Virus record (IMG/VR): IMGVR_UViG_3300023215_003041
DNA from: a virus
Direction: 5' to 3' (one strand)
Length of the DNA: 64,000 nucleotides
Below the pieces are notes generated by a model. It saw only the letters and a list, made by a program, of their open reading frames with translations. It did not search any database and had not been told where the DNA came from. Positions 26,605 through 60,900 of the stretch are shown piece after piece. Both the position numbers and the translations under genes were made by a program. Position 1 is the stretch's first letter. Each line of letters begins with the position of its first letter.

Positions 26605-26832
26605 CTATTTCTTCGAACGCGCTCGAAACGCTTTACGTTTCTTTGCCGCTCGACGTTGGATAGCTGCACTCCCTTTAGGCTTTTTACGCCCTGCATAGTC
26701 TACCTTTGGGGCATACTTCTTAGCTAGGTTGATAGACTCGAGGTGTAAGGATTTTACTTTCTCACCCCACGCCCCTGAGACTGACCCCCCAAGTCCCATT
26801 ATACTCGCCGCTAGTAATAGAGTTTTGTTCAC
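26605..26832 (-). CDS. small basic hypothetical protein
   Basis: GTG start with AAGGAG SD. Confidence 0.6.
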   Translation of the reverse strand: MNKTLLLAASIMGLGGSVSGAWGEKVKSLHLESINLAKKYAPKVDYAGRKKPKGSAAIQRRAAKKRKAFRARSKK

Positions 26833-26857
26833 AGGTGTTTCTCCTTCTTATCGTCGA

Positions 26858-27118
26858 TTAATCGTTAGGTTCTAGGTCTAAATACAACTGCCAGCGGAAG
26901 CCGGCCGAGGTTACAAAAAACAACAGTTGGCCCGTTTGGTCGCAATAAGCCTCATCGGTGCAGGGCTTGAAATCACAACCCCGAAAATAAATCTTTTCAA
27001 ACTCGGCTATTGCCGTAACCCTGTCGTGATAAATCTTCAGGGGCCAGAAACTAAGAGCCTCATTATCCGGTCTACGACACACAATCATATGTACGTTCTT
27101 ATTCTTCTTCTTAGGCAT
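26858..27118 (-). CDS. hypothetical protein
   Basis: 86-aa ORF. Confidence 0.55.
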   Translation of the reverse strand: MPKKKNKNVHMIVCRRPDNEALSFWPLKIYHDRVTAIAEFEKIYFRGCDFKPCTDEAYCDQTGQLLFFVTSAGFRWQLYLDLEPND

Positions 27119-27986
27119 CCGAGTAATCCTCCAATCGTTCGTTCCAGTCCTCGGTGTAAAGCGAAAAGCAGATTGCTTGTAAGGCCGTATCGTCAGACAG
27201 ACTCACAGCTTTACCAGCCCCACCACAATCGGCATCGAGTGCTCGACTCAATTCATCAGCATCACGGATAGTCAGAACCGCAATAAACGCGGGTTCCTCA
27301 GGATCATCAGGCTCAACCCAAGTCAGATTTCCCATGATGTAGTCGTGAATAGTGTATTTACCTTTTACGAAGTTCATCCAACCCCATTCCGCATCATCTA
27401 ACACGTACTCAATAGGGGTACCCGAGCTTAACTTCTCGGGTATCTCATAGAACGCGATATCTTTATCCGCCAATATCTGCGGTGAGGTGTATCGGTGAGG
27501 TTGTGGCTGTCTTCTTTCTTTTACTCCCACGCGGCCATTTAACAACAGGTCGAGCATATGCTTCATAAACGCCAAAGCGTCGGCCGCGGCAGGTTCCACC
27601 TCTAGTAGATGATTGAACCGTTGGGATTCAGGAGGAAGATACGTTTCTGCCGCCGCGTGTCTTAGAAAGCGTGACCCCGCGACAATCGCATCCGCGACCT
27701 TGCCTATTTCATGGTGTAAAGCCCAATAAACACGCTCCGCCGCCATTCTCGAGCAGAATTCCTCGGTGTCGATACCTATGAAATTCTGAATTTCTGGTGT
27801 TACGGCCCCATAGCCAACGACACAAGCCGGAGTACCGCAGGTGTGAATATCTTTCGCGTCATTAGCTACCATTTCACTGTCAAAATAAACAACCATATTC
27901 AAAGGCAACTCAGCCTTAACCACTTCCTCCATGGTTTCTATTAAGAGTTGAAGCAGTGGAAAAGGGTTTTTCTGTTCAGTTTTCAT
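27111..27986 (-). CDS. hypothetical protein (paralog of 29884..30357)
   Basis: Shared IHTCGTPACVVGYGAV motif; leader. Confidence 0.7.
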   Translation of the reverse strand: MKTEQKNPFPLLQLLIETMEEVVKAELPLNMVVYFDSEMVANDAKDIHTCGTPACVVGYGAVTPEIQNFIGIDTEEFCSRMAAERVYWALHHEIGKVADAIVAGSRFLRHAAAETYLPPESQRFNHLLEVEPAAADALAFMKHMLDLLLNGRVGVKERRQPQPHRYTSPQILADKDIAFYEIPEKLSSGTPIEYVLDDAEWGWMNFVKGKYTIHDYIMGNLTWVEPDDPEEPAFIAVLTIRDADELSRALDADCGGAGKAVSLSDDTALQAICFSLYTEDWNERLEDYSDA

Positions 27987-28029
27987 ATCGTCAATTCCCA
28001 AATTTTAGTGGTGGGGAACTCCCCACCAG

Positions 28030-29078: not shown

Positions 29079-29138
29079 CGTCAATTTCCAAGTTTTAAGT
29101 TAATTTCAGTGGTGGGGAACTCCCCACCAGTTTCGCCG

Positions 29139-29327
29139 CTACTTCATTCGGGCTTTTGACGCACGTTCAGCCTCGATACGCTGCTGTATTTCCTCGCGGT
29201 GTACAGAAACTTCTCGGGGAGCATTAACACCCACGCGAACTTGATTCCCATGTACCCCCAGGATAGACACCGTAACATTGTCACCAATAACAACAGCTTC
29301 ACCGATACGTCTGGTTAGTATTAACAT
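29139..29327 (-). CDS. csrA: carbon storage regulator CsrA/RsmA homolog
   Basis: [47 protein letters not shown] is the canonical CsrA signature. Confidence 0.95.
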
Positions 29328-29352
29328 TTACTTATTCCTTTTAAGTTAAGAT

Positions 29353-30842: not shown

Positions 30843-30966
30843 ACGTCAATTTCCAAATTTTAAGTTAATTTCCTAAAAAACTGCGTTACGAGTCGTAAAT
30901 ACACATCAAGAGTGTCGATTCTCGCAACGCAGCGCAACACAGCGAAGACTTCTCGCTTAATTAGTC

Positions 30967-33398: not shown

Positions 33399-33437
33399 CA
33401 ATTTGTAATGGTGGGGAACACCCCACCACCTACCCGC

Positions 33438-34265
33438 TTACTTTTCCATCTGTGCTAGGATATCGGCGCGGACTGATTCAGCGAGCTTGTGCATTTCACC
33501 CCCCACCATAGCGCGGTATTTTTTCGGTAGACCACCGGCGTCCAGTTGTTCCATGTGATCATTCACTAGCGCTTTCACATGGCTTTCAACTTTTGCAAGC
33601 ATTTGGGTTAATGCCTTGTGCACGTTGGTATCTGCGGCGCGTTGTGCCTCGCCCTTGTCGGCATTATCCTTAGCATTGGCCGTTGTGCTTTTTGGCGTTT
33701 CAGCCTTGGTTTCAGCCTTGGTTTCTGCCTTGGTTTCATCCTTGGTTTCAGCCTTGGTTTCAGCCTTGGTTTCTGCCTTGGTTTCATCCTTAGGCAAATA
33801 ACCCCCTAAAAATTCGAGCCATTCTTTTCTGTTAACAGGTGCGCCCATCTCGCCGTATATATCAGCGTCCAAAATGCGATCGGCTAGCTGTGCAAAAGTG
33901 CCTTTAAATTCCAGCGCCTTAAGGCTGTCAAAAAACTTGGTGAAATATTGGCGATTCTCGCTTACATATTTTGCGTAGTCCTTCCAGAAACCTTTCGCCT
34001 GTTGATATAAGCGACTAGTGTCACGGTTGGTACGGGTGCGCTGGTTAGCCGGTACGCCGTATAAATCTAAACAGGTGGCGGTATCAATTCCTTTTTCCAT
34101 GTTGTGCGCCGTAGCAATGCAAGCAATAGCCATTTTCACAGCGGGGACGCGTTTAGCGTTTTTATCCGCCGTAGTTAACACGGTAGCGAATTGGTTTAAG
34201 TCGAATGCCTTAGGTGCAGTGGTGGCAGTGGTGTTTTTTGGTGCTGGTTTGGTTGATGTAGTCAT
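33438..34265 (-). CDS. hypothetical early protein with ETKA repeat linker
   Basis: 275 aa; 12-bp tandem repeats about 33698-33793; first gene after the 34960-34320 noncoding region. Confidence 0.75.
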   Translation of the reverse strand: MTTSTKPAPKNTTATTAPKAFDLNQFATVLTTADKNAKRVPAVKMAIACIATAHNMEKGIDTATCLDLYGVPANQRTRTNRDTSRLYQQAKGFWKDYAKYVSENRQYFTKFFDSLKALEFKGTFAQLADRILDADIYGEMGAPVNRKEWLEFLGGYLPKDETKAETKAETKAETKDETKAETKAETKAETPKSTTANAKDNADKGEAQRAADTNVHKALTQMLAKVESHVKALVNDHMEQLDAGGLPKKYRAMVGGEMHKLAESVRADILAQMEK

Positions 34266-34458
34266 TTGTCGATTTCCTTAAAAGTTAATTGTTAGTGGTG
34301 GGGACTTCCCCACCGGTTAGAGCAGTAAAACGGGTGTTGCTCGAACGTGATTCACTATATAAGGGGGGGTGGTTTTTATGCAAGAAAATGGCTTGATATA
34401 GTGGGGTTGCCCCAACACTCCACCTGAAAAATTTTTGGGATTTTGGGAGGTAGTATCT

Positions 34459-34520
34459 AAACCCTCAATCCTAGAAACTAGAAACTCAACCCTAGAAACT
34501 CAACCCTAGAAACTAGAAAC
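34459..34520. repeat. heptamer array CTAGAAA x5 (spacing 7, 14, 14, 7)
   Basis: Copies at 34471, 34478, 34492, 34506, 34513 interleaved with CTCAACC. Confidence 0.85.
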
Positions 34521-34559
34521 AAAAGTGAGGAACGCGGGACTGGGGTGGTGGCCTAAAAG

Positions 34560-34590
34560 AAAACCCTCAGCTTTTTGAGCTGAGGGTTTG
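34560..34590 (-). terminator. intrinsic terminator
   Basis: AAACCCTCAGCT-CAAAA-AGCTGAGGGTTT followed by TCTTTT on the minus strand. Confidence 0.75.
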
Positions 34591-34735
34591 AGACAATTAT
34601 TTGCCTTAGGCGTTAATTGTAGATTTCCGAAACAATTAAACAACATGGTCAAGTGTCTTGGAACGTTCGTCGATTTCCTGATTGTGGTGCCTGATAAACC
34701 CCTGATTATTTTGGGGTCTCTCGGCGACGTAGACT

Positions 34736-34764
34736 AAAGTATAGGATTTGGTCTGGTTGGTCAA
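34736..34764 (-). promoter_or_regulatory. putative sigma70 promoter
   Basis: TTGACC followed by TATACT (15-nt spacer) or TACTTT (17-nt spacer). Confidence 0.5.
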
Positions 34765-34959
34765 CGGGGTAAAAAGCGCAAATAAGGTTCGGCCTATATT
34801 ACCAATACGTCAAATTGGACTGGGGGTAACACAGGAAAATTGTGCAAAGTAAAGAGAAAACATAGGCTACAGAGGGGGTGAGTGTAACCCAAAAAAGGCA
34901 AGAAAATTTTTTGTAAAAATGTGAACTTTTTTTCTTGCCTTTCAGTAGGTGTTTATTAA

Positions 34960-37455
34960 TTAGCCGTTCAAATTAACTTCCAAGCCGTAATATTGGATAA
35001 CTAATCTATTTTTTGAATCACGGCCTAAGACTTGAAGAAATTGATAGAGGTTACTGAGCTCTTTAGTTCTTCGATAAAAGTCGCCTTCGTCTACAGCGGC
35101 ACCGTTTTTAAATTCTTTAACGGAGGCACAATAAAGCGTATACAAATCTCGGCCGGAAATTGCGTTAAGTGTTTTTAGTTCCTCAAGCAACTCATCTTTT
35201 GGGAGTGACTTAAGTACCGCCATCATCGAATCGTCACTGAGAGAAATGTACCCTGAGGCCTCAAAGAAAAACCGGACATTGTTATTCATCTGGCCAAGCT
35301 GGCGCGTCAACTCCTGATGGGATTCGGGTAAGGTGTAATCTCTTTGGCTAATCAATCGGGGGTAGGCCTGAATTGCCCACGAGATAATTTTGTCTTTTTC
35401 AGCCGAGACGATTTTATTGCCGATATCTAGCACCCTTTGCTCTTGAGGGATAGGGTGTTTCATATCCAATATTAACCATCTACGGGTGAACCCTTCTGAG
35501 AAATCTTTGGTTTTTGGTAGATGGTTAGACGCGAACCAGTGGGTCGCTTGCGGGTGTAGCGTCACATGTTGGCTGGCGGTTTTCTTTAAGGTTATCTCCG
35601 TGCCATCAACGATATCTTTGAAACGTTGGCTATTTATTTTTTCGTCTTCTGAAAGTTCCCCACACAAGTTAAGTAATTTATTAGTGAGCGCGGCCAAAGA
35701 GTCGTTATCGTGCCATTTGTTAGGGGGCAGTGATACGCGTTTTTGTACAGGGATGAGTCCCCGTATGATGTTCAGGATTTGGCTTTTGCCTGACTTTGGG
35801 GTGCCATGTAGCAATATGGCTCGTTGAAAAAGGGTACCGGTATTGAAGAACGTGGAGGCCATGGCTTCTTGCAGCGCTAAAATACTGTCTTCATCATGTG
35901 GCCACAATTGATTTAAAAATCGGCCAAAGCGTTTTGGCGGATTAAGCTGTTCTGGGTCAAACGTGAATGGCAACGTATAGGTTAATCCCATATCTGGATC
36001 ATGCGGAAGCAATTGTAGACTAGGGCTAACAAACCCGTTGTTGAAGTTAACTCCGGTGGAGCTGACACGACGCAGGGGTAGGGCAAGTTTGTTTTTCACT
36101 GCCGTAAGAATGGCATTCATGTTTCGAGTCCCTTTAAGCGTGAAGCTTGACGGGAAGTAGGTGTTTATGATGTTAGTAATTTCATAATCTTCTAAAGGGC
36201 GCCAGTGTGTTCCCTCCCAGCGAAACAAATGCTGGGCATCTACCCCCGAATCGAATCGATGTTCGGTTTGACTGGTGAGAAAATTAACAACGTTGTGAAC
36301 GATGGCCGGCAGATTAACAACCCCTTTCGCTTGGAGTCGCAATTTGTTTATTTGGCTCTCCATTTTGCTCATGTTCAGTTTCATTCCCGACTGTCGAGAG
36401 ATATATCGCTTAAGCTGGTCGGACTCGAGTTTAGTGATGGTGAACGAACGGGCGATTTCTTCCATAGCACGTTGGCATGCAGCAAGCATTTTGGTCTCAT
36501 CCCCGATAGCCTCGGACATTTGTTCGAAAACATACTCTTGTAACTGGCTATAATTTAATTGTGCGTCCTTTTTGGTGAACGGAATCGCGTACTTTTCCTT
36601 CAAGGTACTACCTATTTGCTTGTCCCAAGCGGGAGGGAGCTTAAGGTTGTAAGTAATACGCATTTGATAGATAAGTGAGAAAAAAGCTTGAAAATAGGCC
36701 TGTTTTTGATGATTTGGCGGGATTTCGTCAAAATTTTGACAAAAACTATCATAAAGTGCATCAATCTCTTGCAAAATGGGCAAAAGTGTCGTGTTTTCTT
36801 CACAATTGAATAAAAAATCGAAGCAAAAATGTGTGAGGTAGCTACGTATTTTTACGTCCAACTGTGTGAGAGTGTGTAATTGTTCGTTGGATTCAGCTTT
36901 ATAGGGCTCTTTTTGAACCTCAATGTTGGGTAGAATATCTTCAACCAGCGTCACAATATCACTCGGGTTATATACCGGTAAGTTATCCACCATTTCTTGG
37001 GTCGGTATCTGCGTATGATTATTTAGTACGATACAAGTATCTTCGGCGAGAAACGAAAGTAACGACCCGTCGTGGCCGGTGCCAAAGAGGGTGAAGGAAG
37101 CTATATCATTTAGGGTTGCATCCGAGGGGATCTTAAAAATTAAATAGTGCATGTTCGCGGATGAAACTACCCAGCAATTGGAGGGCATGCTTTGAGTTAA
37201 CGCCAATTTCAAGTCACTTTGCTGTTGCGTTAAGGCCAGCGCCCCCAGGGCATGTTCGGGTTGTTTTTCTAAAGGCAGGCCTAAAAGAATACCGCAGAGT
37301 TTATCTGCGTGAACCGATTGCCAATTCTTTTGATGTAGTGACTGGGTGGCAAGGGCAATTTTATCTTGAGGTATGGCCGGAAGTTTTGAGCGTTTGAATA
37401 ACGGGATAGTTGGGACACCTACCGTAAATAGTGATTTAGATAGTGATGTGTACAT
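34960..37455 (-). CDS. primase-helicase (P4/D5-like SF3 helicase with N-terminal primase-like domain)
   Basis: Walker A LLHGTPKSGKS, KLLNLCGEL, HWFASNHLP, GFTRRWLIL; D5_N-like region LLPHDPDMGLT. Confidence 0.85.
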   Translation of the reverse strand: MYTSLSKSLFTVGVPTIPLFKRSKLPAIPQDKIALATQSLHQKNWQSVHADKLCGILLGLPLEKQPEHALGALALTQQQSDLKLALTQSMPSNCWVVSSANMHYLIFKIPSDATLNDIASFTLFGTGHDGSLLSFLAEDTCIVLNNHTQIPTQEMVDNLPVYNPSDIVTLVEDILPNIEVQKEPYKAESNEQLHTLTQLDVKIRSYLTHFCFDFLFNCEENTTLLPILQEIDALYDSFCQNFDEIPPNHQKQAYFQAFFSLIYQMRITYNLKLPPAWDKQIGSTLKEKYAIPFTKKDAQLNYSQLQEYVFEQMSEAIGDETKMLAACQRAMEEIARSFTITKLESDQLKRYISRQSGMKLNMSKMESQINKLRLQAKGVVNLPAIVHNVVNFLTSQTEHRFDSGVDAQHLFRWEGTHWRPLEDYEITNIINTYFPSSFTLKGTRNMNAILTAVKNKLALPLRRVSSTGVNFNNGFVSPSLQLLPHDPDMGLTYTLPFTFDPEQLNPPKRFGRFLNQLWPHDEDSILALQEAMASTFFNTGTLFQRAILLHGTPKSGKSQILNIIRGLIPVQKRVSLPPNKWHDNDSLAALTNKLLNLCGELSEDEKINSQRFKDIVDGTEITLKKTASQHVTLHPQATHWFASNHLPKTKDFSEGFTRRWLILDMKHPIPQEQRVLDIGNKIVSAEKDKIISWAIQAYPRLISQRDYTLPESHQELTRQLGQMNNNVRFFFEASGYISLSDDSMMAVLKSLPKDELLEELKTLNAISGRDLYTLYCASVKEFKNGAAVDEGDFYRRTKELSNLYQFLQVLGRDSKNRLVIQYYGLEVNLNG

Positions 37456-38018: not shown

Positions 38019-38057
38019 TTAGCGAAAATAGACTAATTGACGATAATTGAGGTGGCC

Positions 38058-39845
38058 GTGGCTAACCAATTCCTCTTGGATTTGTATTCGACCGCTGAGG
38101 GGCGATATAACCGTGACTCTGCGGATATGACTCACGGCGAATGGATGTGTGCTAATACGTCCTTGAACAAACGCCCCTTTAGTTTCGACCGATACCCCTT
38201 CCAGAAACAAATTGCCGATGATATGCACCCTAGTTTGGATTGTATTAAGCCCTCACAGGTTGGCCTAACAGAAATCCAGATACGTAAAGCGCTTGCGATA
38301 TTGAGCCGAATTCCCAATACGTCACTTATCTATACGATGCCCAACGAGAGAATGTTTAAACGTATCTCAAAGGCCCGTATTCAACCATTGATAAATTTCG
38401 ATAAAGCGTTTCGTCAAGAAAGCGGGGATAAGACCAAGCAATCAATGGACTTAATGCGCGTGGGCACCAGTTTTTTGTATGTGACCGGTTCAGCGGAGGC
38501 CGATGCCACGAGTATCAATGCGGATTTTGTTTTTAACGATGAAATCGATTTAACCGACCCTGCTATGCTCTCGTTGTTTAACTCTCGTCTGCAGGGTTCA
38601 GACCATCGTATTAATCAGCGGTTTAGCACCCCCACTTATGAAGGGGTTGGGGTTGATCGAGGTTACAAGCGAAGTGACCAACATGAATACGTGATTAAGT
38701 GCCGGTGCTGCAACCATTACCAGATACCCGTTTTCAGTCGGGCTTTTGTAGCGGTGGATGGGTTGCCGGATGATTTAGAGAAGTTTGAAGATATCAGCGA
38801 TGCGTTAATCGATTCGGGCCAGATTGATATTCTATCGGCCAAAGTCGTGTGTGAGAAATGTCGTAAGCCCTTAAATCTTGCGGACTATGAAAACCGTGAA
38901 TGGGTAGCGAAATATCCCTCTCGAGTCTTAAACCGTGGTTATAGAGTCCGAACGTTTTCTACTCACCGATTAGATCCTCAGTATTGTTTTGCGCAGCTCT
39001 TAGACTACAAAGCGAACGATAATTTAAAAGGCTTTTACAATACGGTAAAGGGAGAACCGTACAATAACGAGGACCAAAAGTTATCCTTAAGCCAGATAAA
39101 GATGGTGATGGGAAGTCCTGCGATACCTAAACCACGGTCAGGGGAACCTCACTTTATAGGAATTGATGTGGGTGTCACATGTCATATCGTTGTTGGTAGT
39201 GGCGTAGAACCTAGAAAGATGCGAATTATTTTAGCCACATCCTGCCATATCGATCAATTAAACGGGCTTGTGAAAAAGCTTGATGAACAATACAACTTTG
39301 TTGGGGGTGGGGTAGATAGATATCCTTACACGCCCACCAGTAACGGGCTACGGGAAGGTAGCTTTGGTCGTATTATGCCTGTGCATTATCATGGTAGTAA
39401 GGAAGTTGTCGAGGATAAGAACGCGTTAGGTGATGTGGATTATATCAAGGTTAATCGAACGGATATGTTAGACCATGTGGCCACAGGTATTAGAAACCTT
39501 ACGTGGTCTATTGAGGGTTATACCAGCAACAAAGAAAAAATAGAATCGCACCTTCAAGATATGATACGCGAGGAAGTGGAAGAAGCTCAAGCCGTATGGG
39601 TGAAGCTTTCAGGGAAAGATCACTTTTTTCATGCAATGGCGTATCTTTGTGCCGGTGTCTCTTACAAAATTATTAAAGATGGCCTAGAAGGTTGGACCAA
39701 CGTGAATACTGATATATCAGGCGTCACTCAAGGGGGCGGCGGGGTCCTTTTAGGCAACACGGAAATGGATATTTTTGGCACAACCAATTTAATCGGGTAT
39801 TCTGGGGCGAATGCGCGAGATAAGATAATTCGCCGACATAAATAA
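38058..39845 (+). CDS. terL: terminase large subunit (GpA-like)
   Basis: KPSQVGLTE Walker A, FNDEID Walker B, STPT, Zn-ribbon CxxC pairs, GIDVG nuclease, DHFFHA; GTG 38058 with GAGG SD. Confidence 0.88.
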   Translation: MANQFLLDLYSTAEGRYNRDSADMTHGEWMCANTSLNKRPFSFDRYPFQKQIADDMHPSLDCIKPSQVGLTEIQIRKALAILSRIPNTSLIYTMPNERMFKRISKARIQPLINFDKAFRQESGDKTKQSMDLMRVGTSFLYVTGSAEADATSINADFVFNDEIDLTDPAMLSLFNSRLQGSDHRINQRFSTPTYEGVGVDRGYKRSDQHEYVIKCRCCNHYQIPVFSRAFVAVDGLPDDLEKFEDISDALIDSGQIDILSAKVVCEKCRKPLNLADYENREWVAKYPSRVLNRGYRVRTFSTHRLDPQYCFAQLLDYKANDNLKGFYNTVKGEPYNNEDQKLSLSQIKMVMGSPAIPKPRSGEPHFIGIDVGVTCHIVVGSGVEPRKMRIILATSCHIDQLNGLVKKLDEQYNFVGGGVDRYPYTPTSNGLREGSFGRIMPVHYHGSKEVVEDKNALGDVDYIKVNRTDMLDHVATGIRNLTWSIEGYTSNKEKIESHLQDMIREEVEEAQAVWVKLSGKDHFFHAMAYLCAGVSYKIIKDGLEGWTNVNTDISGVTQGGGGVLLGNTEMDIFGTTNLIGYSGANARDKIIRRHK

Positions 39846-43021: not shown

Positions 43022-44233
43022 ATGCAGGCACAAAACCTAAGTCAGATTAAACGCGCCCCTTTAGCGGTAGTACTAAATGGAATTGACAGCGACGACCAAG
43101 AAGTCTCTCGCCGTGCAGGGGTAAGGCTAGTTCAAGAAGCCAAAAAGTACGGCATCAATGTCCGTGATTACTTAAACCTTTCGGTTGATGTACACGCGTC
43201 TAACGATGAGAAAGCTGGTAAGCATTTCCGTCTAGGTAACGGTCAATATATGACTGGCTATCAAGCGGCTATTGTGGACCTTAACCTCCCGTTTAAAAAC
43301 GCGTTTGAAGAAGGTATCACCCTCCAAGCCGCGGCGGATACTTTTAGTGCTCGCCCTGGGTCCCGAGCGCTATTCCCCGAAGTTATCGACGATATGCTTC
43401 AATGGAATAGTCGCCAAGATATGTTTGAGTCTACGGCCCCGATGGTTGCCCAAACCCGAACTATTTCAGGTACCGAACTTATCACTACGGCTATTTTTGA
43501 CGACCAAGGCGAGTTGAATACGTCGCCTCTAGCAGAATTAGCCAACATTCCGATGCAGACTATCACCAGCTCTGATAAATCCGTCCGATTCTTCAAGCAT
43601 GGTTCAGGTATTCGTACTTCGTATGAATTTGAGCGTCGTGTCAGCCTTGATATCTTAACCCCTTATGCGGCTCGTATTGCGCGTAATAAAGAAATCAGCA
43701 AAGTGAAAATGGCGACCAACCTGTTAATTAACGGGGATGGTGTACATGGTGCTGCCGAGGTTGTTGCCGCGTCAGATTATAAGAACTGGGACGTAACAGG
43801 GGGTAAATCGCTTAAAGACAACTATGTTGCTTTAGCCGATTTCTTTGCTCGTCGTGCGCGTAAAGGTACCCCTGTAGACATTATCGTGGGCAACTACGAT
43901 ATGTGGCTAGAAATGTTCTTAATGTTCTTGCCAACGCAACCTAACGGTAAGTCAACGGCGGAAGTCCTACAAGAAAGAGGTGGCCCTAAGGTTGCCTTGA
44001 TGATGGATTTCCTTAACGGCGTGAACTTCCATATTTCGAGCTCTGCGCCAACCGGAAAACTTATCTGCTATTCAAAAGCGGATACGTTAGAAGAATTGAT
44101 CGAAGCAGGGTCGGTTCTGTCTGAGTCTGAAACCGCGATTAAGAACCAGTCAATTACTTACGTGAAAACTGAAAACTCCGGTTATCGCCTCGTTTACGGC
44201 GACACACGTGTCGTTTTCGACACCCTGGCATAA
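43022..44233 (+). CDS. major capsid protein
   Basis: 403 aa, synteny, best-matching leader, followed by a terminator. Confidence 0.78.
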   Translation: MQAQNLSQIKRAPLAVVLNGIDSDDQEVSRRAGVRLVQEAKKYGINVRDYLNLSVDVHASNDEKAGKHFRLGNGQYMTGYQAAIVDLNLPFKNAFEEGITLQAAADTFSARPGSRALFPEVIDDMLQWNSRQDMFESTAPMVAQTRTISGTELITTAIFDDQGELNTSPLAELANIPMQTITSSDKSVRFFKHGSGIRTSYEFERRVSLDILTPYAARIARNKEISKVKMATNLLINGDGVHGAAEVVAASDYKNWDVTGGKSLKDNYVALADFFARRARKGTPVDIIVGNYDMWLEMFLMFLPTQPNGKSTAEVLQERGGPKVALMMDFLNGVNFHISSSAPTGKLICYSKADTLEELIEAGSVLSESETAIKNQSITYVKTENSGYRLVYGDTRVVFDTLA

Positions 44234-52200: not shown

Positions 52201-55200
52201 GTCGCGAAAGGCCGTGGTGTAGGCCGTGCTGTAGGTTTAGCAGCCCGTGCTATACCTGGGGTGGGTACTGCTACCCTGTTAGGTACTGGTGCCGTGTATG
52301 GGTACCAATACTTAGATGGTCGTCAACGAGCAAATGATCGTGTTGATAATACTCAGGCGAGGCTTAATCAAGGCCAAGCTGAAACAAAAGCCTACCAAGA
52401 CCAACTTAAGAAAGTTGGTGGGACGATTGACACACTTATACTTAAGCAACATAACCTCGCGGATAATGATGCTCTGCAGCGTGAGATTCGTCGGTTAAAT
52501 GATGAATTCCGCCAGCAAGGTCTCTATATCGATTCCTCGGTGGATAGCTACGATAAACTCATTGCGAAAATGCTTGAGTTCGAAACGTCTACGCGCAACG
52601 GTGTTAATTATCTGCAGAAAAATAACCGTCGCTTTTACCTAGAAAACAGTGAAGCTAAGCGTTCTGAGATTTTTTCAACAGGGTGGTTTGATTCTGATGC
52701 CGAGCGATTACTTACTGGACAAACAAACCCTTTGGCCAATGGCCAGAACTCCCAGCGTAATGCTGCAACGTCAAGACGCCGAGGACAAAATGCGGGGGTT
52801 TCTAATTTTTACAATAAAATAATTGCTTCGGTACTGCCTACGTTCTTTGAGGATTTGCAGGAAATTAATGATGAAATAAAGAATGTTGATTTGACAAAGG
52901 AAGGGGCGCTGTCGCAAGTAAAAAAGGCGAGAAGTAAAACGCGGGAACTTGAAGGTGAGCTCACCCGTATCCTAAACCAATCGCCGGAGCAGTTAGATGC
53001 CCTTATGGGGCAGTTTAAGCTTGAGGGTAAGGCGCGAGAAAACGCCGAGAAATATATCGAGGACCTTGCAGCGGCCATGCTATCTCGGGCCAATGTTCTT
53101 TTGGATATAGAAACGAATCAAAAAGAGTGGGATAGCTTAGATCCTGAGAAGATAGAAGGCGACCGCGAACTGTCGGAGTTTATATTAACGAGGCGTCGTG
53201 ACGGGCTCAATGGGATTGCTGATATTTCTCAGGATATCGAAGGGTTATTTAAGGAAGATGAAAACCACGAGACGAGTGATTATTTAGACACGTTCAAAAA
53301 GGTACGAGATATCGTAAGAGACCGTCTTACCCAGCTTGTAGAGCATGAAGCTGAGACGATTTCCGAGTTAACCGAACGGGGTGTGGCTAATCCTCGTCTG
53401 GTTCTTCAAGAGCAAGGATACTTTCAGGCTCAAGGGAATGCTCGGGGCCGGTTAGAAAAGTACTTACAATCTGCGGCACTTTCGGCGAGACCGGATGCTA
53501 ACCTAACGTACCCCGCTCGGTTAGCTGAATTGGATAAAGAAATTGAGGTTTTGAAAGAACGGCTGCGTCAAGTTACCGACCGAGATACGTCCGACGAAAT
53601 AAAGAACAAGCTTAAAACACTGAACACAGAACGCGAAACGGTTGCGAATGAGCAAGACACTTTATTTGCAGCCATCGATGGCAATTCTCCGGTTTCGGTA
53701 GCCCAGCGTGATAGAGAATTAAAGGCCCGTATCAAATTCGCTAATGAGCAGTTTGATGCCCTTCAAGAAAAGACCCTAATTAGGGAGAGCTTTGAACAAT
53801 CACTCTTAGCAAAAGAGAACATCGACCCTCGCCAGTTTAGGCTTTTAGGGGATGATGATGAATTGTCTCGGTTGTTGTCTGATGTGGTTAATGAACAACG
53901 CACCAGTATTTCTAACCAGTTAAAAGAGGTGCGCCTTTCGGCGGAGGAACTTCGTAGGCTCTCGGAGGATAAGCTGCGTGAGTCAAATGAGTATGTTGCT
54001 ATTGCTGAAAATGACGGGTATACCGACGAGACGCGGGAAAGGGCCTCAGGGATTGCGAACGAACTTAAGACCCAAGCCACGGAGCTCGAGCGCTCGGCAA
54101 TTGAGTTAGAAGAACAAGGGGTACTAACAGCCAAAGAGGCGCTTGCGGATTTTGCGGAGTATCTTAAAAGAACGATTATTGACAACCCTGATTTAACAGG
54201 GGGCCGGAGTTCGATAAAGGCCACGAAGGCGGTCGAGAGCATTGAGTCTGAAACCTTGTCGCTAGACTCAAATCTTATTGATTTGTCCCAAGCCTCGAAA
54301 GATGCAGATTTAAGCCTACGCGACTTCCGTATGAAAATGGAGGACGTCACTCGAGCTATATCTATGAGTCCTTATGAGACGGACAAATACAATAAAGTTG
54401 GGGCTGCGATATATGGTCGTTCTTATAGACCATTAAACGGTACCGGTGTAGATGAAAACTATGCCGGAGCCAACGAAGGGTCTCTAGGGTCTAGCTTGAG
54501 TAACGCGGGGCAGTACGTTGTTGATGATGTAAATAAGCATTATCGAAGCTACGATATGCTTAAGCAAATGACCCTAGAGGCGACCGAGGCCGCTAAAGGG
54601 TTAGGACAGGCATTTGGTGATACCTTCACGGATTTAGTTACAGGGGCACAAAGTGGTGAAAATGCTATTCGTAGTTTAGGCGCCAGTATCTTAACCCAGA
54701 TGGCCAATATTGCTTCACAAGCTGTTGCGAACCAACTGATCAGTTCAATATTTTCTATGATAGGTTTGGGTGGTGGTGCCGCGAACGTAGGAGGGATGGC
54801 TTCAACGGGGGCGGTAGGTAACTTGGCGGGGCTTCGCTTTACAGGGGGGCCAATCCTTGCGGGTTCTTATAAGGTTGGTGGTTTGATTACGGCGGGGATG
54901 GATACCCGAGATTCCACTTATGCGAAAGTGAGCCGAGGTGAGTTTATTTTACGTAAACCCTCGGTGGATGCCCTAGGGATTGAAAACGTTCGGGCGCTTA
55001 ACTCGGTGGACAAATCCACGATTAAACAAAAAGAAGCGTCCACACTTAAAGCGAAAGAAACTATTTCCCAAATAAGTTCCACGGAATCGGGGGAGGTAAA
55101 TGTGTATGTTATGTCGGAGAAAGCACAACCCCAGTTAGGCCCGAATGACGTTAAAGTAATTATTGGCGACGACATTGCTAGAGACGGGGAAATCGCCACG

Positions 55201-55236
55201 TTAATAGCATCAATTCCTAGAGGTAAGAACAAATGA
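49216..55236 (+). CDS. tape measure protein (2006 aa)
   Basis: Long helical protein; TP901-type segment (SEKTKFTATEVADAAITLGQAG, LGAMANSGIRAGSTLGTGLRQ). Confidence 0.9.
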   Translation: MAKGSSASNTIRKTLLNFTIDGNSQKQIESLVKEFEKLERVTKSSSKQLQGYLAQIPDTPAGREKLASNAKNEVNTQRKILQENEKNAKAILDQLALTIGKGLNPQQQQQLLKGLNTAMGEITGRFTKQAQEQAKKMAASLDTYYKKQFDSNPTIKRRRQIDPNAVRDYNQRDLANALASQRIFRKGASEALKDAQRLGDTEAIARFKKKLQSLDAGLTAAEKQLKKFETTASEAAKQSTKVRKEAERKTLADYRREALRLDPTVPKTDPLRKDALRSLTRDQIQVEIDKNKVLKRAADSALKQGLTAGDTSLIRDSSKALKELKHSTKEAKEQLSQLTIESRKAADAEKKAQQKAASLDTYYKKQFDSNPAIKRRRQIDPNAVRDYNQRDLANALASQRIFRKGASDALKDAQRLGDTDAIPKFKKNLLRLDAGIAAAEKQLKKFEDTTREAAKQSNKARNEAERKTLADYRREALRLDPTVPKTDPLRGGSLRSLTRDQIQVELDKNKVLKGAADKALKQGLDTGNTALVRDSSKALKELKKSTNEAKEQLKALTRQSREAEQLEREKIKGAKAKAPVTEQQRVNRRIEQIQQARTNQRLDGGAQLFRNQGQLLRNYAVMGAGIGGITTSAIFSTELDRQFKQLQSIVNLTNVEMEELSTNLIDVSEKTKFTATEVADAAITLGQAGLGQKDIQNAIEGVTLFATAVGSDLKSAVDLATSTLGVFNKDSSQMLNIVDKMTTAVNNSKLNLDKLTLGLQYSGNLAAQSNVTFEETVSALGAMANSGIRAGSTLGTGLRQIIISLQKPSDTFIRTVQALGISMSDLDITAHGLIPVMRTLAERGFTVRDAMESMEVRAASAYGAFANNIEVAEELSEQMRIGGSSARANETQMGALSNQLARLSSISKSIVYESLEPLLDVITGLTETTADFLSVVRDLGPALSVLAVPASIFGSLLASRSVLSLGAGLLGGVEMLTGGGKKGKSKGNIFSRLINVAKGRGVGRAVGLAARAIPGVGTATLLGTGAVYGYQYLDGRQRANDRVDNTQARLNQGQAETKAYQDQLKKVGGTIDTLILKQHNLADNDALQREIRRLNDEFRQQGLYIDSSVDSYDKLIAKMLEFETSTRNGVNYLQKNNRRFYLENSEAKRSEIFSTGWFDSDAERLLTGQTNPLANGQNSQRNAATSRRRGQNAGVSNFYNKIIASVLPTFFEDLQEINDEIKNVDLTKEGALSQVKKARSKTRELEGELTRILNQSPEQLDALMGQFKLEGKARENAEKYIEDLAAAMLSRANVLLDIETNQKEWDSLDPEKIEGDRELSEFILTRRRDGLNGIADISQDIEGLFKEDENHETSDYLDTFKKVRDIVRDRLTQLVEHEAETISELTERGVANPRLVLQEQGYFQAQGNARGRLEKYLQSAALSARPDANLTYPARLAELDKEIEVLKERLRQVTDRDTSDEIKNKLKTLNTERETVANEQDTLFAAIDGNSPVSVAQRDRELKARIKFANEQFDALQEKTLIRESFEQSLLAKENIDPRQFRLLGDDDELSRLLSDVVNEQRTSISNQLKEVRLSAEELRRLSEDKLRESNEYVAIAENDGYTDETRERASGIANELKTQATELERSAIELEEQGVLTAKEALADFAEYLKRTIIDNPDLTGGRSSIKATKAVESIESETLSLDSNLIDLSQASKDADLSLRDFRMKMEDVTRAISMSPYETDKYNKVGAAIYGRSYRPLNGTGVDENYAGANEGSLGSSLSNAGQYVVDDVNKHYRSYDMLKQMTLEATEAAKGLGQAFGDTFTDLVTGAQSGENAIRSLGASILTQMANIASQAVANQLISSIFSMIGLGGGAANVGGMASTGAVGNLAGLRFTGGPILAGSYKVGGLITAGMDTRDSTYAKVSRGEFILRKPSVDALGIENVRALNSVDKSTIKQKEASTLKAKETISQISSTESGEVNVYVMSEKAQPQLGPNDVKVIIGDDIARDGEIATLIASIPRGKNK
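49627..50874 (+). repeat. internal tandem duplication in the tape measure gene (594-bp units, 654-bp period)
   Basis: 49627-50220 vs 50281-50874; both encode AASLDTYYKKQFDSNP...AKEQL. Confidence 0.9.
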
Positions 55237-55619
55237 GCTTAGAAGTTTTTGACTTTCCGTATCACAAGGTTTCTTATTCGTATCGTGAACGTTCCTCTAG
55301 GATCACGCTCGGTAATGATTGGGAGTATGTAACCAAGCCCTCAACGCCAGTATCTCGATTATTTAAGCTGTCGTTTGAAGCTATGAAATCTTTTGAAACA
55401 CCTCAAACTTTATCGCCGATGGAACGTAGATATAGTATTGATCACTTAGATGATTTTTACCAAAGACATGAACTTTGGAGTGAATTTTTATACAACCATC
55501 ATAGGTTTGGAAATGTCGTGGTTCGTTTTGATTCACCGTTACAAGTCCCTGAGGGCTATACCGAAGGTGATGGGGTATCACTCCCTTTTATTGTCACATT
55601 AAGAGAGATTCCACTTTAG
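55233..55619 (+). CDS. distal tail protein (lambda gpM-like)
   Basis: 128 aa directly after the tape measure gene. Confidence 0.6.
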   Translation: MSLEVFDFPYHKVSYSYRERSSRITLGNDWEYVTKPSTPVSRLFKLSFEAMKSFETPQTLSPMERRYSIDHLDDFYQRHELWSEFLYNHHRFGNVVVRFDSPLQVPEGYTEGDGVSLPFIVTLREIPL

Positions 55620-55655
55620 TCTTTAGTATAAAATTTATTTTTCGATATATTTTTA

Positions 55656-55684
55656 TTGACAAGTGAATCAAAAACACCTAATCT
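55656..55684 (+). promoter_or_regulatory. sigma70 promoter of the small RNA
   Basis: TTGACA-17 nt-TAATCT with an AT-rich upstream element. Confidence 0.75.
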
Positions 55685-55690
55685 TGAAGT

Positions 55691-55770
55691 CGGTTAGCAG
55701 CCCACGTGGCTCCTAATTATCGTCGATTTCCAAATTAACGCCCTAGCTTTTAGCTAGGGTGTTCTATTTT
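55691..55770 (+). ncRNA. candidate trans-acting antisense sRNA complementary to the conserved leader
   Basis: 5' hairpin 55692-55718, single-stranded AUCGUCGAUUUCCAAAUUA 55719-55737, terminator hairpin 55738-55762 plus U-rich tail; no ORF. Confidence 0.72.
55738..55770 (+). terminator. intrinsic terminator of the sRNA
   Basis: ACGCCCTAGCT-TTT-AGCTAGGGTGT-TCTATTTT. Confidence 0.7.
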
Positions 55771-55838
55771 GGCGCTTGAAAAATATTCAATCCTTTATTG
55801 TTTTCGGTATACTGAGGCAAATTTAAAGGAAATCGACG

Positions 55839-56327
55839 ATGAAAGAACTCTCTAACGAGGTGCGGTCTCAACGACATTCTTTGACCCCCGACGAACTAAC
55901 TACCTACCTACAATTAGAGATAGATGATCCTGATGGCGCTCCCGTCGTTATCCGACTTACGGATAAGAAAACCACCGACTGGAATGGAGTTACATGGGTT
56001 AAATCACCTTTCCAGCTTTCAGGGGTTTCTAAAAATTCAAGCAGCGAACGAAATCGGCCAAGTCTAACGTTACCGAATGAAGGCGGCATTTATAGTTACT
56101 ATATAAATCGAAGCTTGCTGGAAGATGCAATTGTAACTCGTTATAAAGCTATGCCCCATGAGTCGGCCAGTTCCCTTGTTTCTAAGCACGTATATTACGT
56201 ATCTCACCCGAGTAATATCGCGGGGGACCTACTTACTCTGCAATTGCGCCGGTTATCGGATGCCAACAAATATCAAATCCCCCCGAACCGGTATACTCAA
56301 CCCGAGTTTAGTACGGTGATAGTATGA
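55839..56327 (+). CDS. minor tail protein (gpL-like)
   Basis: RPSLTL...LEDAIVTRY; synteny. Confidence 0.6.
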   Translation: MKELSNEVRSQRHSLTPDELTTYLQLEIDDPDGAPVVIRLTDKKTTDWNGVTWVKSPFQLSGVSKNSSSERNRPSLTLPNEGGIYSYYINRSLLEDAIVTRYKAMPHESASSLVSKHVYYVSHPSNIAGDLLTLQLRRLSDANKYQIPPNRYTQPEFSTVIV

Positions 56328-56809
56328 TGAATGACTTAACCCCTTATCTTGGTCGCCCTTATGAGCAAGGTATTGTTGATTGCTTTACCGTGGTGCAAGA
56401 CTTTTATAAAGACAAGTATCAAATATTGGTGCGCAACTACGCACGTCCGGCCAATTGGGCAGGGGTCCCAGGCCTCGACTTCTTTACCGATAAGTTTGAA
56501 GCCGAAGGTTTCGAGGATACGGGTAACTCCGCACATCGTGTTCGTTATGGTGACGTTCTTATGATGCGTATCGCTGGAAGCGAGGTTGTAAATCATGTGG
56601 CGATATATGTGGGACGTCAAAAGATCCTACACCATTTGGAAGGTCGTTTAAGTGAGGTTGTTGATTATAGTCCCCGCTGGCGTAACCGTGTAGTGAAAGT
56701 AGTCCGTCATAATCAGATAGAAACGATGCTAACTGCCGAAGTATTTCGTAATCTTCATAAAGGACTCCCTGCCCACTTAAAAGCGAAGCTAAGGGGTAAA
56801 ACGATATGA
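56324..56809 (+). CDS. NlpC/P60 tail-tip protein (gpK C-terminal-like)
   Basis: GRPYEQGIVDCF, GDVLMM, NHVAIYVG, ILHHL. Confidence 0.85.
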   Translation: MMNDLTPYLGRPYEQGIVDCFTVVQDFYKDKYQILVRNYARPANWAGVPGLDFFTDKFEAEGFEDTGNSAHRVRYGDVLMMRIAGSEVVNHVAIYVGRQKILHHLEGRLSEVVDYSPRWRNRVVKVVRHNQIETMLTAEVFRNLHKGLPAHLKAKLRGKTI

Positions 56810-57141
56810 AGGAACTGAAACAATATTGGGGCTCTGAGTTCGAGCGTTGTGGTTTCATCTTAAAATCAGGGGAGATTGTCGAGGTTACTAATATCGCTAA
56901 CAACCCTGAAAAAGAATTTCAGGTCTCAGATGAGGACTTCGAAAAATATTACGCCGACACTGTGGCGTCATGGCACACTCACACGGATACTTTTTCAAAT
57001 CTAAGCTTGTCGGATTATTATACTTTTTTAGCTCTACCTGAATGGAAGCATTGGATAGTCTCTCAACATAAAACCGTTCAATTTTATGTCGAGGGTAAAG
57101 ACGTATTTGTAGGGGAGGTTATCCCACATGGTGACGATTAA
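56806..57141 (+). CDS. JAB/MPN tail-tip protein (gpK N-terminal-like)
   Basis: ERCGFI, WHTHT...SLSD. Confidence 0.8.
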   Translation: MKELKQYWGSEFERCGFILKSGEIVEVTNIANNPEKEFQVSDEDFEKYYADTVASWHTHTDTFSNLSLSDYYTFLALPEWKHWIVSQHKTVQFYVEGKDVFVGEVIPHGDD

Positions 57142-57907
57142 ATTAGTAGGTTTTAATAAGAAAATCCCTCAAGAGATAAAAACCGAAGCTACGAGCTATC
57201 GTGAAGCTTTAGAGGCTTTAAAGATGCAAGAAGGTTTTAACCCTAGAACGTCTAAAGTTCGTTACGTGTGTGAAATCCCTGAGGTAAAATCAATTATTGA
57301 CTTAGATGAACCTGTAGCTAATGGCCTATTAACCTTGAAGCGAAAGCAAACCCTCAATACGTTGCGGGGCTTTCAAGGTAGTGGTGAAAGTAACGGATGG
57401 GTTAAAGTGATTGTAGGCGTCGTTTTAATTGCCGTGGCTGTTTATATGCCCACGGTTTCAGCGGGGTTCGCTGCGCTAGGTTCTGCTGGGATGGTAAATC
57501 TTAATCTTCTTATAGGAAGCGTAGGGCTAGCGTTTATTTCTGGGGGTATTGCGCAAGAATTATTACCGGAAGTAGGTGGGGGTAGTGAAACCGAGGACTC
57601 GAGTAACACGGCCACGTCTTATCCCAACACCGTAGCCTCAGGGACTACAAGGGCAATGATATTTGGGAAGCACCGCTTTGGCGGACATTTATTTCAATTC
57701 AATATTGAGAGCGTTCGAGGAAATTCCGCTACCATCCGAGAGTTTACGGATGTAATATGGGATGATATTAGTGAGAATAAGCGTGATTCGTGGCTAACTC
57801 TTTATTACAACAGTGAATCAAATCAAGTTGGCCAAACATATTACACAGGGGCGCAAACGGTTTATAAGGATGGAATTCGTTCTCCTAATAATCCAAATAA
57901 CCCTTAA
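57128..57907 (+). CDS. tail assembly protein (gpI-like)
   Basis: Ubiquitin-like N-terminus, central hydrophobic Gly/Ala stretch, GTTRAMIFG. Confidence 0.7.
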   Translation: MVTIKLVGFNKKIPQEIKTEATSYREALEALKMQEGFNPRTSKVRYVCEIPEVKSIIDLDEPVANGLLTLKRKQTLNTLRGFQGSGESNGWVKVIVGVVLIAVAVYMPTVSAGFAALGSAGMVNLNLLIGSVGLAFISGGIAQELLPEVGGGSETEDSSNTATSYPNTVASGTTRAMIFGKHRFGGHLFQFNIESVRGNSATIREFTDVIWDDISENKRDSWLTLYYNSESNQVGQTYYTGAQTVYKDGIRSPNNPNNP

Positions 57908-57948
57908 GCCTTAAATAATTTAATTTATCGACGATATTAGGAACTTAA

Positions 57949-60900
57949 GTGGCTAATAACCAATTTAAGGGAACCGGTGGTGGTGGCGGAAGTAGCGCCT
58001 CTAACCAAGAAGATAATCTCTTTTCTACAGACGCTTTTGAATTTGTCCTAGGGATTTCCGAGGGGCCTATTGGTGGTATTGTCGGGGATACCCCTGAGGA
58101 AAAGTTACAAAATATATTTGTCGATGATGTACCGGTTTTTAATAGCATAAATGAGTCTAATTTCGATAACTCGAGTCTGATGATTCGTTTTGAAAATGGC
58201 ACTCCACTTAGCGCTAAAGAGGATGCCGAGGAAGGTCAGACTCCTATTTGGTTTTGCTTAGGTGGGCAAAATATTACGCAGCAAGTTTCCAGCAATCTCG
58301 CCTATGCCAGCCCCGTAACAAGAACTACCGTCCCAACTACGAAAGGTTTTGATGAGATAGAGCTGCGTTTTATCGTTTCTCAACTCGTTAAATATACGGA
58401 TGAAGGGTCGAAGAATAATACTTTATCTCTCGAGATAGCTTACAAAAATATTTTAGATAGTGAATGGACGATCAAAAACGTCTCTTTTACAGGTAAAACC
58501 ACGATTAGCCCTTTTGTAAAAGTGCATAATATCGTGATGCCTCGCACAAAACCTGAGGACCAGTTTGAAATACGTGTTAAGCGATTATCTCAAGATTCAA
58601 CAGATGAAGACATTGCCGAAGTTAACTGGGCCTCCTATGAATTACTCACGAAGACAGGGGACGCTTACACCGATAATGGTGTTGAGTATGACGACCCAGA
58701 CCTTGAGTACCACCCAGGGCTTTCGATGCTGCATGTTGCGGGAGTTTTAGGCCAGCAACTTACATCCATCCCCACCGTAAATGCTAATTACTATGGGCTT
58801 GAGTGCGCTATCCCGAGCAATTACGATCCCATCACTAAAACCTATGACGAAACAGAGGTTTGGAATGGCCAATTTAAAGCAAAGAAACATTGGACAGATA
58901 ACCCTTTTTGGATTGCTTATGAATTGGTGACTAATCTCGACTGGGGTATGGTTCGTTACAACCCTCGAGTGAAGATAAATCGCTATTCGGTTTATCGTAT
59001 GGCTAAGTACGCTGACGGTTACGACCTTCACACAGATGAAAAGAATTTAACTAACCCGATAACGGGTGAGCAACAGGCCGCACGTTATACCTTCAATATT
59101 GTGTTAACCAGCCCAAAAAACGGATGGGATATCCTACGGTATGTGTTGGGAAGTGCTTTTGCTCGACCGATAGAAACAGACTTAGGGGAAATAAAATTTC
59201 TTGCGGATTTACCCGAAGCCCCTGTGGCCACAATCACCCCCGAAATGTGTGTGTCTTCCTCAGGGGGGAGTCCTTACAATTACAATTTCTCGGCGATATC
59301 TGAAAGACACAACGCGCTAACCTCAAGTTACATTGATGCGTCGATGGATTATCAAGAGCAGTATGTCTCAGAGATAAGAGACGAGGACTCAATCAATAAA
59401 TACGGGCTTAACCCTTACGAATTTGAAGCCGTAGGCGCTACTGATATTTGGGAAGTTAAGCGTCGTATGACTTTTTATCTTTCCTCCGTCACCACAGAAA
59501 CGCGAACGATATCTTTTAGTAGTACTTTACAAGGTATGGCGTTTGAGCCCATGGATATTATCAACATCGTTGATCCTGTTGCTGGATACGCATATTCCGG
59601 TCGAGCGGTGAAGCTGGAGACTAAAGCTATAACACTACGTGACCCTGTGTATTTTGATGAGGCTGGGGTTTACAACGTTACGGTTATGGGGACTAGCGAG
59701 GACTATAGTTACACCACGCAAATTTCTTCCTCAAACCTAGATCAACCTATTTACCGGTTAAAAATACAAGGCTTTTTACCCGATTTATCACAGTTCAATC
59801 GCTATCCTCCCGTGGTTATTTCCGCGTCGGAAGAAGGTCAGATAATTGGTCTTCCTAAACCTTATCGGATATTAAAATGCAGTGAAAATACGTCGATAAA
59901 AGGGGTATATGATTTTGTTTGCCAAGAGGTGAATCTTAATAAACACGTCGATGCGGATAACCTGATAATTTCGGAAGCGCCCCAACACTCATTTCTATTA
60001 AAGCCTCAAGTTCGTAAAGTAACGAATTTACGGATTGTTGATGAAGAACATTTACAGTTGCGTGGATTAGAGCAAATAAATTTATGGGTTGCTTGGGATA
60101 TCGTTGCACCTTTACCGCCTGGGGGTTACTTCGAGATTAAGATTAAAGAGGAATCTACGAATGGTCGCGAGTATATTTCTAAAACCGTTAACCAATACTT
60201 TGAAATACAGAACGTAAAAATTGGGGACGTCCGTATTGAGGTTCGCAGTGTGCAGGGAGATACCCAGAGCGCATGGACAACCTTAGACTGGGTGACCACG
60301 ATGGTACTGTCTGCAGATATGAAAGACCAAGGGGTATCCCCTGAAATCAGTATTAAATACGAGAACTACACCCTTACGATAGAAAGCAAGGTTATGTATC
60401 AGTTTGGGGAACTGGATATTCAACAGATAGACCTCTTAGAAACCAGTAGCGTTCAAGGTATACAGTTCAACATCCACAATGATTTAGACCCTGAGAATAG
60501 GCCTTTATTATTTACCAAAATAGGTAAATCTACGCTTCAAGTTACCAAAAGTGATTTTGAAATTGCGGTCTCCGGCGGGGAACTTCCTAGTAATTTATAT
60601 ATAACGGCTAGGGTTATTGACCTTGCAGGGGGAACTTACCCTAATTTATTAGAAAGTCCTCTATCATTTCTGGTTAGTACCCCTGTGGCGGCGATTACGA
60701 ATCTTAGCTACGAGTATGTTGATTCAGATGAAACACCGCACTTATTGACGTGGGACGATAACAATTACGCCTATCAAGTAATAATCTATAAGCCTGATGG
60801 GCGCACGATACAGGATTCTTACCAGACTTATTCAGCTAGCCAAGCCTTCGGGTTTCTTAAGGCTGAGACTGGCTATGTGGCGTCCGTGGCGGGGGTATCT

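Follow-up and report, generated by a model that had tools for sequence, protein, structure and literature searches.

Within a 64,000-nt stretch of viral DNA (IMG/VR record IMGVR_UViG_3300023215_003041; the whole stretch is called the window below), a candidate small RNA (sRNA) spanning 55692-55770 is predicted to be complementary to the region around the translation start of many of the phage's own genes. The reading we prefer, to which we would assign a probability of about 0.45, is that this predicted RNA covers those translation starts, and that at one of two leader layouts, in which a conserved 9-nt box precedes the Shine-Dalgarno (SD) sequence, it would do so by offering its anti-box as a toehold from which the leader invades the RNA's own 5′ hairpin. 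Because the anti-box would lie in the single-stranded centre of the RNA, with an anti-SD-module on both sides of it, the RNA could cover leaders of either layout. The predicted unit is made up of the following parts:

55656..55684, plus strand: sigma-70-like promoter of the sRNA (TTGACA, 17 nt, TAATCT)
55692..55718, plus strand: 5′ hairpin of the predicted sRNA, from its minimum free energy (MFE) fold
55710-55718, plus strand: 3′ arm of this hairpin, CUCCUAAUU, the "second register"; the 5′ arm begins GGUUAGC
55719..55736, plus strand: single-stranded seed, consisting of the anti-box AUCGUCGAU and then UUCCAAAUU, the anti-SD-module of the main-class leaders
55737..55770, plus strand: intrinsic terminator, a 12-pair stem with a U-rich tail, called by the terminator scan

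The promoter hexamers, with a -35/-10 spacing of 16-17 nt, lie 7 nt ahead of the hairpin, and the fold prediction leaves the seed unpaired with a probability of about 0.9 or higher. Read on its minus strand, the locus is an SD module, a box and a second SD module, and therefore the RNA itself consists of the anti-module CUCCUAAUU, the anti-box AUCGUCGAU and the anti-module UUCCAAAUU, in that order.

The box to which the seed corresponds, AT(C/T)GACGAT, occurs 36 times on the coding strand of the window, and a search for the 9-nt motif with at most one mismatch returned 71 matches vs 11.7 expected. These copies point to two layouts of one common translation-start leader. In the main class, which comprises about 27 genes, an A/T-rich SD module similar to AATTTGGAA is followed by the box, the last two bases of which begin the ATG. 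In the box-first class, which comprises the large terminase gene (terL), a gpJ-like tail gene (gpJ below) and a 75-aa gene (p75), the box is followed by A(A)TT and an SD, and the start codon stands 13-20 nt past the box. The leaders and genes of this second class are:

38036..38067, plus strand: box-first leader of terL (box 38036-38044; AATT and GAGG 38045-38052; GTG 38058)
38061-38067, plus strand: GCUAACC in the terL leader region, complementary to the sRNA 5′ end
38058..39845, plus strand: terL, large terminase gene, which tblastn aligns with annotated terminase large subunits
57927..57961, plus strand: box-first leader of gpJ (box 57927-57935; ATTAGGA 57936-57942; GTG 57949)
57957-57961, plus strand: UAACC in the gpJ leader region, predicted to pair with the sRNA 5′ end
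57949..62679, plus strand: gpJ-like central tail fibre / host-specificity protein (phrog_31, E = 8.7e-106)
26841..26858, minus strand: box-first leader of p75 (box, AAGA, AGGAG; GTG at 26832)
26605..26832, minus strand: p75, a putative small membrane protein with a hydrophobic N-terminus and a basic tail; homologs in the related genomes G002 and G005

The best tblastn match of terL was to the cultured Pseudoalteromonas phage KB12-38 (53.8% identical), and p75 had no PHROG match. The original prediction had proposed that an 18-nt segment of the RNA (55710-55727, plus strand), running from the hairpin into the anti-box, pairs with these three leaders, and both the segment and its counterparts are found where it placed them. 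The p75 leader (26841-26858, minus strand) equals the reverse complement of the 18-mer at 16/18 positions; the terL leader (38036-38052, plus strand) matches with one C-to-T change, which is compatible with a G:U pair, and a one-base shift at the SD; and the gpJ leader (57927-57942, plus strand) matches with one A missing. The GTG starts that it gave to the three genes (26832 on the minus strand, 38058 and 57949) are likewise borne out by tblastn alignments to five relatives, which begin at residue 1, and an alternative in-frame TTG within the box is out of frame in relative G005.

Co-folding of a 75-nt RNA with 65-nt targets, in which the 5′ hairpin was either left free or forced shut, was used to estimate binding (energies in kcal/mol), since duplexfold, when applied to the 65-nt targets in full, produced long-range structures that were not realistic. 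With the hairpin closed, the three box-first leaders are predicted to bind at only -10.0 to -13.6, as against -20.6 to -23.8 with the hairpin free, a gain of -7 to -13 (p75, -20.6 free vs -12.6/-13.6 closed, gain -7/-8; terL, -22.3 vs -10.0/-10.9, gain -11.4/-12.3; gpJ, -23.8 vs -11.0, gain -12.8). For 24 main-class leaders the means are -19.1 closed and -19.8 free (standard deviation 3.0), and the gain has a mean of -0.7 and a minimum of -4.0; the box-first leaders thus equal the main-class level once the hairpin is free. A natural control was built from 25 SD-bearing start regions without the box, each grafted behind the terL box; these bind at a mean of -10.6 with the hairpin free, the gain having a mean of -1.6 and a minimum of -6.1. 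When the downstream 31 nt were shuffled, 0/100 shuffles reached the observed gain at each of the three sites, and this result, together with the weaker controls, indicates that the complementarity exceeds what an SD alone gives. It had been claimed that these leaders match RNA sequence outside the main leader consensus and that their pairing would require the 5′ hairpin to open. The co-folds bear this out in two respects: the three leaders can pair, in the model, with nucleotides outside the single-stranded seed, with a gain above every control, and the predicted pairing needs the hairpin open.

It had also been held that the second register provides support independent of the main leader consensus, and here the sequence argues otherwise, CUCCUAAUU being the complement of a generic ribosome-binding site (RBS) module and a near-repeat of UUCCAAAUU. 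When the 9 nt after the box were replaced by the SD modules of 27 main-class leaders, the mean gain was -10.7 at terL (observed -11.4), -12.4 at gpJ (observed -12.8) and -3.9 at p75 (observed -7.0). Since the swapped modules give the same gain at terL and gpJ, the CUCCUAAUU extension is not an independent sequence. An SD does stand where the CUCCU of the RNA was said to pair with it, this part of the match being inseparable from the general need of a gene for an SD. As for the 18-nt match as a whole, it carries the gain at p75, which depends on the 9 nt after the box; at terL and gpJ it nets only about -3 kcal/mol and barely repays the opening of the hairpin. With positions +10..+31 shuffled, the gain falls to -3.5 at terL, where 2/100 shuffles reach the observed value, and to -3.2 at gpJ, where 0/100 do. 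In the co-folds, GGUUAGC at the sRNA 5′ end finds partners in terL codons 2-4 (38061-38067) and in the UAACC of gpJ (57957-57961), and on these models most of the gain at the two genes would come from this further match, which joins the RNA 5′ end to the start codon and to codons 2-4.

A scan of IMG/VR for the leader pattern yielded relatives of about 80 kb, and further lineages were reached through an alignment of gpJ N-termini. Conservation of the intergenic unit far exceeds that of the flanking genes (66-70% identical), and lineages A-G as well as KB12-38 have a unit of the same build about 2.2 kb upstream of gpJ. Across these the -35 is invariant, the -10 reads TA(A/G/C)T(A/C)T and the sequence of the spacer varies. 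Six lineage versions of the RNA fold alike, with a 5′ hairpin, an open anti-box and a terminator, the hairpin sequences and inner stems being different; a MAFFT alignment of the sRNAs across lineages aligns only the anti-box, so that conservation of the hairpin means agreement among independent folds. The terminator is present in all lineages and, relative to the relatives, shows one compensatory pair change and one change from C:G to U:G, while C-to-U substitutions in the hairpin retain their pairs as G:U on the plus strand only. Comparison of the sequences therefore speaks for an RNA unit whose architecture is real and conserved.

Comparison of seeds and leaders likewise indicates that the two co-vary, lineage by lineage. 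The anti-box is invariant except for one G/A position and for KB12-38, where T replaces C. It has A in the relatives, whose leaders all have T (33/33, 33/33, 33/33 and 29/29), and G in the window, whose leaders are mixed (9 C and 16 T). In lineage D the leaders and the sRNA both do without one A between GGA and the box. The seed of KB12-38 matches that phage's own, different leader consensus, GGATTGACA.

In KB12-38 itself (MF098558.1), the homologous sRNA unit occupies 13765-13933, in an unannotated 168-nt gap, and about half of the genes have a GGATTGAC leader.

The second register can also be followed into the relatives. In the sister clade, box-first leaders stand at 5-6 genes per genome, namely terL, gpJ, p75 and three genes outside the window, X1, X2 and X3. 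Among genomes of the A/B clade, opening the hairpin still yields a gain at gpJ in 5/5, at X1 and X2 in 4/4 each, and at terL and p75 in 4/5 each. Lineage C (G001) has a hairpin 3′ arm of different sequence (ACUCAAUC and beyond), and its gpJ leader has a 13-nt run in common with the complement of this arm; its terL leader is similar, and in a 133-aa gene of this lineage (p133) an 11-nt run and the bases after the ATG match the complement of the arm. The cognate gains at these three genes are -8.4 to -11.4, and the sRNAs of lineages C, D and F yield a gain of about 0 on A/B targets. At gpJ of lineage D there are eight contiguous extra pairs, two of them G:U, and the gpJ leader of lineages E and F belongs to the main class. 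The suggestion that a GTG start defines the class did not survive this comparison, because relatives use ATG at many box-first genes (X1, X2, X3 and p133, and gpJ in lineages C and D).

It is conceivable, if somewhat unlikely, that the second register is a by-product of modules that all of these sequences have in common. Pairing would then run only via the box and its flanks, while the hairpin remained shut and served as a stabilising cap at the 5′ end; the 3′ arm would resemble an anti-SD-module because the sRNA gene descends from a leader unit (SD module, box, SD module) in inverted orientation, and the box-first leaders would carry the module simply for ribosomes. The module swaps fit such an origin, in that generic type-1 modules placed after the box give the same gain, and so does the minus strand of the locus, which amounts to a complete leader unit with an SD and a start codon. 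Pairing with the hairpin closed is still worth -10 to -13 kcal/mol, and the gain is lacking in lineages D and G, at the X3 leader and at terL of G005. What a by-product would not lead one to expect is that the gain at terL and gpJ derives mostly from complementarity past the module, to the 5′ arm of the sRNA, or that the different arm of lineage C again matches three of its own leaders; a hairpin that stays closed would, moreover, leave box-first binding about 9 kcal/mol weaker than main-class binding.

A second alternative dispenses with regulation in trans, and we regard it as improbable. Here the unit would act in cis as an anti-RBS, within a 5′ leader that read-through gives to the next gene (55839), or else the box would be a site for a protein or the ribosome, and its inverted copy a relic or decoy. 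The position of the unit is in keeping with this, always directly upstream of the same minor-tail gene, whose main-class leader sits 105 nt downstream; moreover, the G/C combination in the window and A/T in the relatives form a compensatory pair with that neighbouring leader. Against action in cis, a strong terminator and a second promoter-like element intervene between the unit and the next gene, and lineage-specific complementarity to the distant terL and gpJ leaders would not be expected. The seeds of lineages C and D fit the genome-wide consensus better than they fit the deviant leader of the neighbouring gene, which favours action in trans. As for a protein, one that binds single-stranded RNA and recognises the sense box could not bind an antisense copy.

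How often matches of this quality arise by chance was assessed by scanning both strands of the window for the duplex energy of the 18-nt 5′ half. The three sites score -23.8 (p75), -21.1 (gpJ) and -18.5 (terL), and rank 1, 2 and 4 behind the self-match. None of 8 dinucleotide shuffles reaches -21.1, so that the p75 and gpJ matches are not common by chance, as the original prediction would require; the terL match fares worse, 4/8 shuffles holding a site at -18.5 or better, and for this reason it is not exceptional by raw energy, being distinguished instead by its position exactly on a translation start. Ungapped and with at most 3 mismatches, the 18-mer occurs twice in the window (itself and p75) vs 0.02 expected, most of the 18-nt signal being the already known 9-nt box. 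That all three start regions resemble the 5′ half of the RNA by mere coincidence is hardly credible, since even with the terL duplex reached in half of the shuffled windows, the sites rank 1, 2 and 4 genome-wide and all fall on start sites, the observed co-folding gains are reached by 0/100 shuffles and the layout recurs at orthologous genes in relatives.

An in-gene site at 23360-23386 (minus strand) has a predicted duplex of -20.1 kcal/mol with the 5′ half of the sRNA; it is G:U-rich, contains no exact box and is probably a chance match.

To return to regulation in trans with two modes of binding, a number of observations weigh against it, in addition to the generic nature of the 9-nt extension, which is just the complement of an RBS module, and the confounding of its CUCCU part with the need for an SD. 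The sRNA promoter was not called in the window by a promoter consensus scan, because its -10 matches the consensus at only 3/6 positions. The gain at terL of G005 is 0.0, and the X3 leader never shows one (about -1). The SD of p75 lies 3 nt closer to the box in the relatives, which means that the p75 register shifts and is not kept. In lineage D the net gain is 0 to -2.8, its hairpin being very stable, and in lineage G it is -2.5. MFE co-folding, from which all of these energies derive, ignores kinetics, proteins and ribosomes. Finally, one sRNA would need to be present in amounts matching at least 30 abundant mRNAs.

The sequence of events that we envision would begin with an encounter at the open part of the RNA. 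Main-class leaders would pair through the open seed. Box-first leaders would use the anti-box as a toehold, and the duplex would grow from there into the hairpin's 3′ arm and, at terL and gpJ, continue along the 5′ arm once this is released. It would then cover the SD together with the start codon and the first codons, and the expected outcome would be a block to ribosome binding, possibly followed by decay. In this we infer production of the RNA, its action in trans, opening of its hairpin in the cell and a repressive effect.

A role in the lytic cycle is more likely than one in prophage immunity, given that the phage has genes for a DNA polymerase, a helicase and a primase of its own and that terminal repeats are present in two relatives; no integrase was found among the proteins tested and no immunity region in the genes tested, and we do not favour an immunity role. 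More tentatively, and with somewhat less confidence than we place in the binding model itself, it may be that throughout this family of ~80-kb marine siphophages, KB12-38 included, one sRNA acts through two binding modes on most of the phage's own translation starts, with the open seed serving the common leader and the toehold-driven opening of the 5′ hairpin serving a small set of genes (terminase, tail tip and small membrane proteins), and that co-evolution of RNA and leader has produced a translation code private to each lineage.

Among characterised systems, the closest working analogue appears to be the c4 antisense RNA of phages P1 and P7. This product of the immI region pairs with phage mRNA near the ribosome-binding site and blocks translation; its function depends on its folded structure, specificity changes in the RNA and its target are matched between related phages, and it acts on one operon, ant (PMC12197685). 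Like c4, the RNA described here, predicted from sequence, is a small phage RNA complementary to translation-start regions, with changes in RNA and leader that are matched between relatives (the G/A of the anti-box, the indel of lineage D, the seed of KB12-38 and the arm of lineage C). Unlike c4, its complement is common to ~30 genes on both genome arms and comes in two layouts, and the candidate RNA has its own putative promoter and no Rfam family match.

The leaders themselves have a counterpart in the start-associated sequence (SAS) and extended start-associated sequence (ESAS) of cluster K mycobacteriophages, short conserved sequences at many gene starts that contain the SD; the SAS is the 13-bp GGGATAGGAGCCC, typically located 3-7 bp upstream of the start codon (PMC3203893). 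It is confined to non-structural genes, and its discoverers suggested a phage or host RNA or protein as partner, no partner RNA having been reported (PMC3203893). The likeness lies in a conserved short sequence at the starts of many phage genes. It is a likeness by analogy only, the sequences and hosts being unrelated and the box of the window, AT(C/T)GACGAT, overlapping the ATG; a further difference is that a candidate partner RNA is present here and co-varies with the leaders. A single copy of the SAS in the opposite orientation has been noted in several K1 genomes, namely those of Anaya, Adephagia, Angelica and CrimD (PMC3203893), and by analogy this inverted copy could be an antisense RNA gene.

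Two further comparisons concern the mode of action. The predicted RNA would differ from multi-seed RNAs such as GcvB and Spot 42 in that its second segment is sequestered in its own 5′ hairpin and its targets are phage terminase and tail-tip genes; in GcvB, with its R1 and R2, and in Spot 42, separate segments serve separate target sets, the seeds are normally unstructured and the targets are host genes. Invasion of a hairpin from a single-stranded toehold beside its stem is the principle of toehold-mediated strand displacement. The T4 protein RegA represses many phage mRNAs at their initiation regions, recognising loosely defined AU-rich sites; the candidate regulator would resemble RegA in acting on many phage mRNAs at translation initiation regions, and differ from it in being an RNA with an exact complement. 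No publication describing this RNA or leader was found, and the literature found on KB12-38 was not about regulation. Phage antisense RNAs are a kind already known, and what would be unusual here is the second, hairpin-invading class of targets that the models predict.

If true, the second binding mode is the best available argument for action in trans on distant genes over action in cis on the neighbour, and the whole would be a phage-wide riboregulon that explains why dozens of genes keep an identical start region, which is the question left open for the mycobacteriophage start-associated sequences. The second mode also offers mutations that spare the SD, in the 5′ arm of the sRNA vs synonymous changes in terL codons 2-4, and with KB12-38, a relative available in culture, the idea can be tested at the bench.

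Several searches were made around the sRNA locus. Rfam cmscan of 55400-56000 with E up to 10 returned no meaningful family, only three chance-level eukaryotic matches; a DNA search of a phage collection with 55200-58200 gave no match, and nothing turned up when viral contigs were scanned with one protein, the product of the neighbouring 162-aa gene. When bacterial genomes were scanned with a 20-mer, a single match appeared, in Parasediminibacterium, about as many as chance would produce in 596 Gb. A palindrome (TTGAA, 5 nt, TTCAA) followed by TATACT occupies 55776-55813, past the sRNA terminator and ahead of the next gene; the whole is nearly invariant in the relatives and looks like an operator with a promoter that would serve the distal tail genes. 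On its minus strand the locus also contains, at 55698-55709, an SD, 4 nt, a start codon (GTG here, ATG or TTG in relatives), two codons and TAA. This 3-codon open reading frame was rejected as a gene, since lineages C and D lack it and its variable base falls within the hairpin loop; most probably it is a coincidence arising from that loop.

Two observations touch the leaders of the window. Upstream of p75, 26859-26905 (minus strand) holds a terminator-like hairpin, and a 28-nt block that precedes the p75 box is identical in relatives; this upstream block may be a promoter whose start could fall in the box, which would give a p75 mRNA without the toehold. At 34666-34674 (minus strand) there is an orphan sense copy of a complete main-class leader with no open reading frame behind it. 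The orphan and its downstream sequence are kept in four relatives (G002 37171, G003 9396, G004 49345 and G005 37354), and it could be a decoy for the predicted sRNA.

One relative, G007 (IMGVR_UViG_3300035698_011202), has three copies of the box within ~100 nt of non-coding sequence (43878-43984), interleaved with GTGTGACACC repeats, and only the third copy is followed by a gene. In the same genome the terL homolog (34138-36351, minus strand) is one 746-aa open frame with ~150 extra residues after residue 71 of the match, possibly an intein or an inserted domain.

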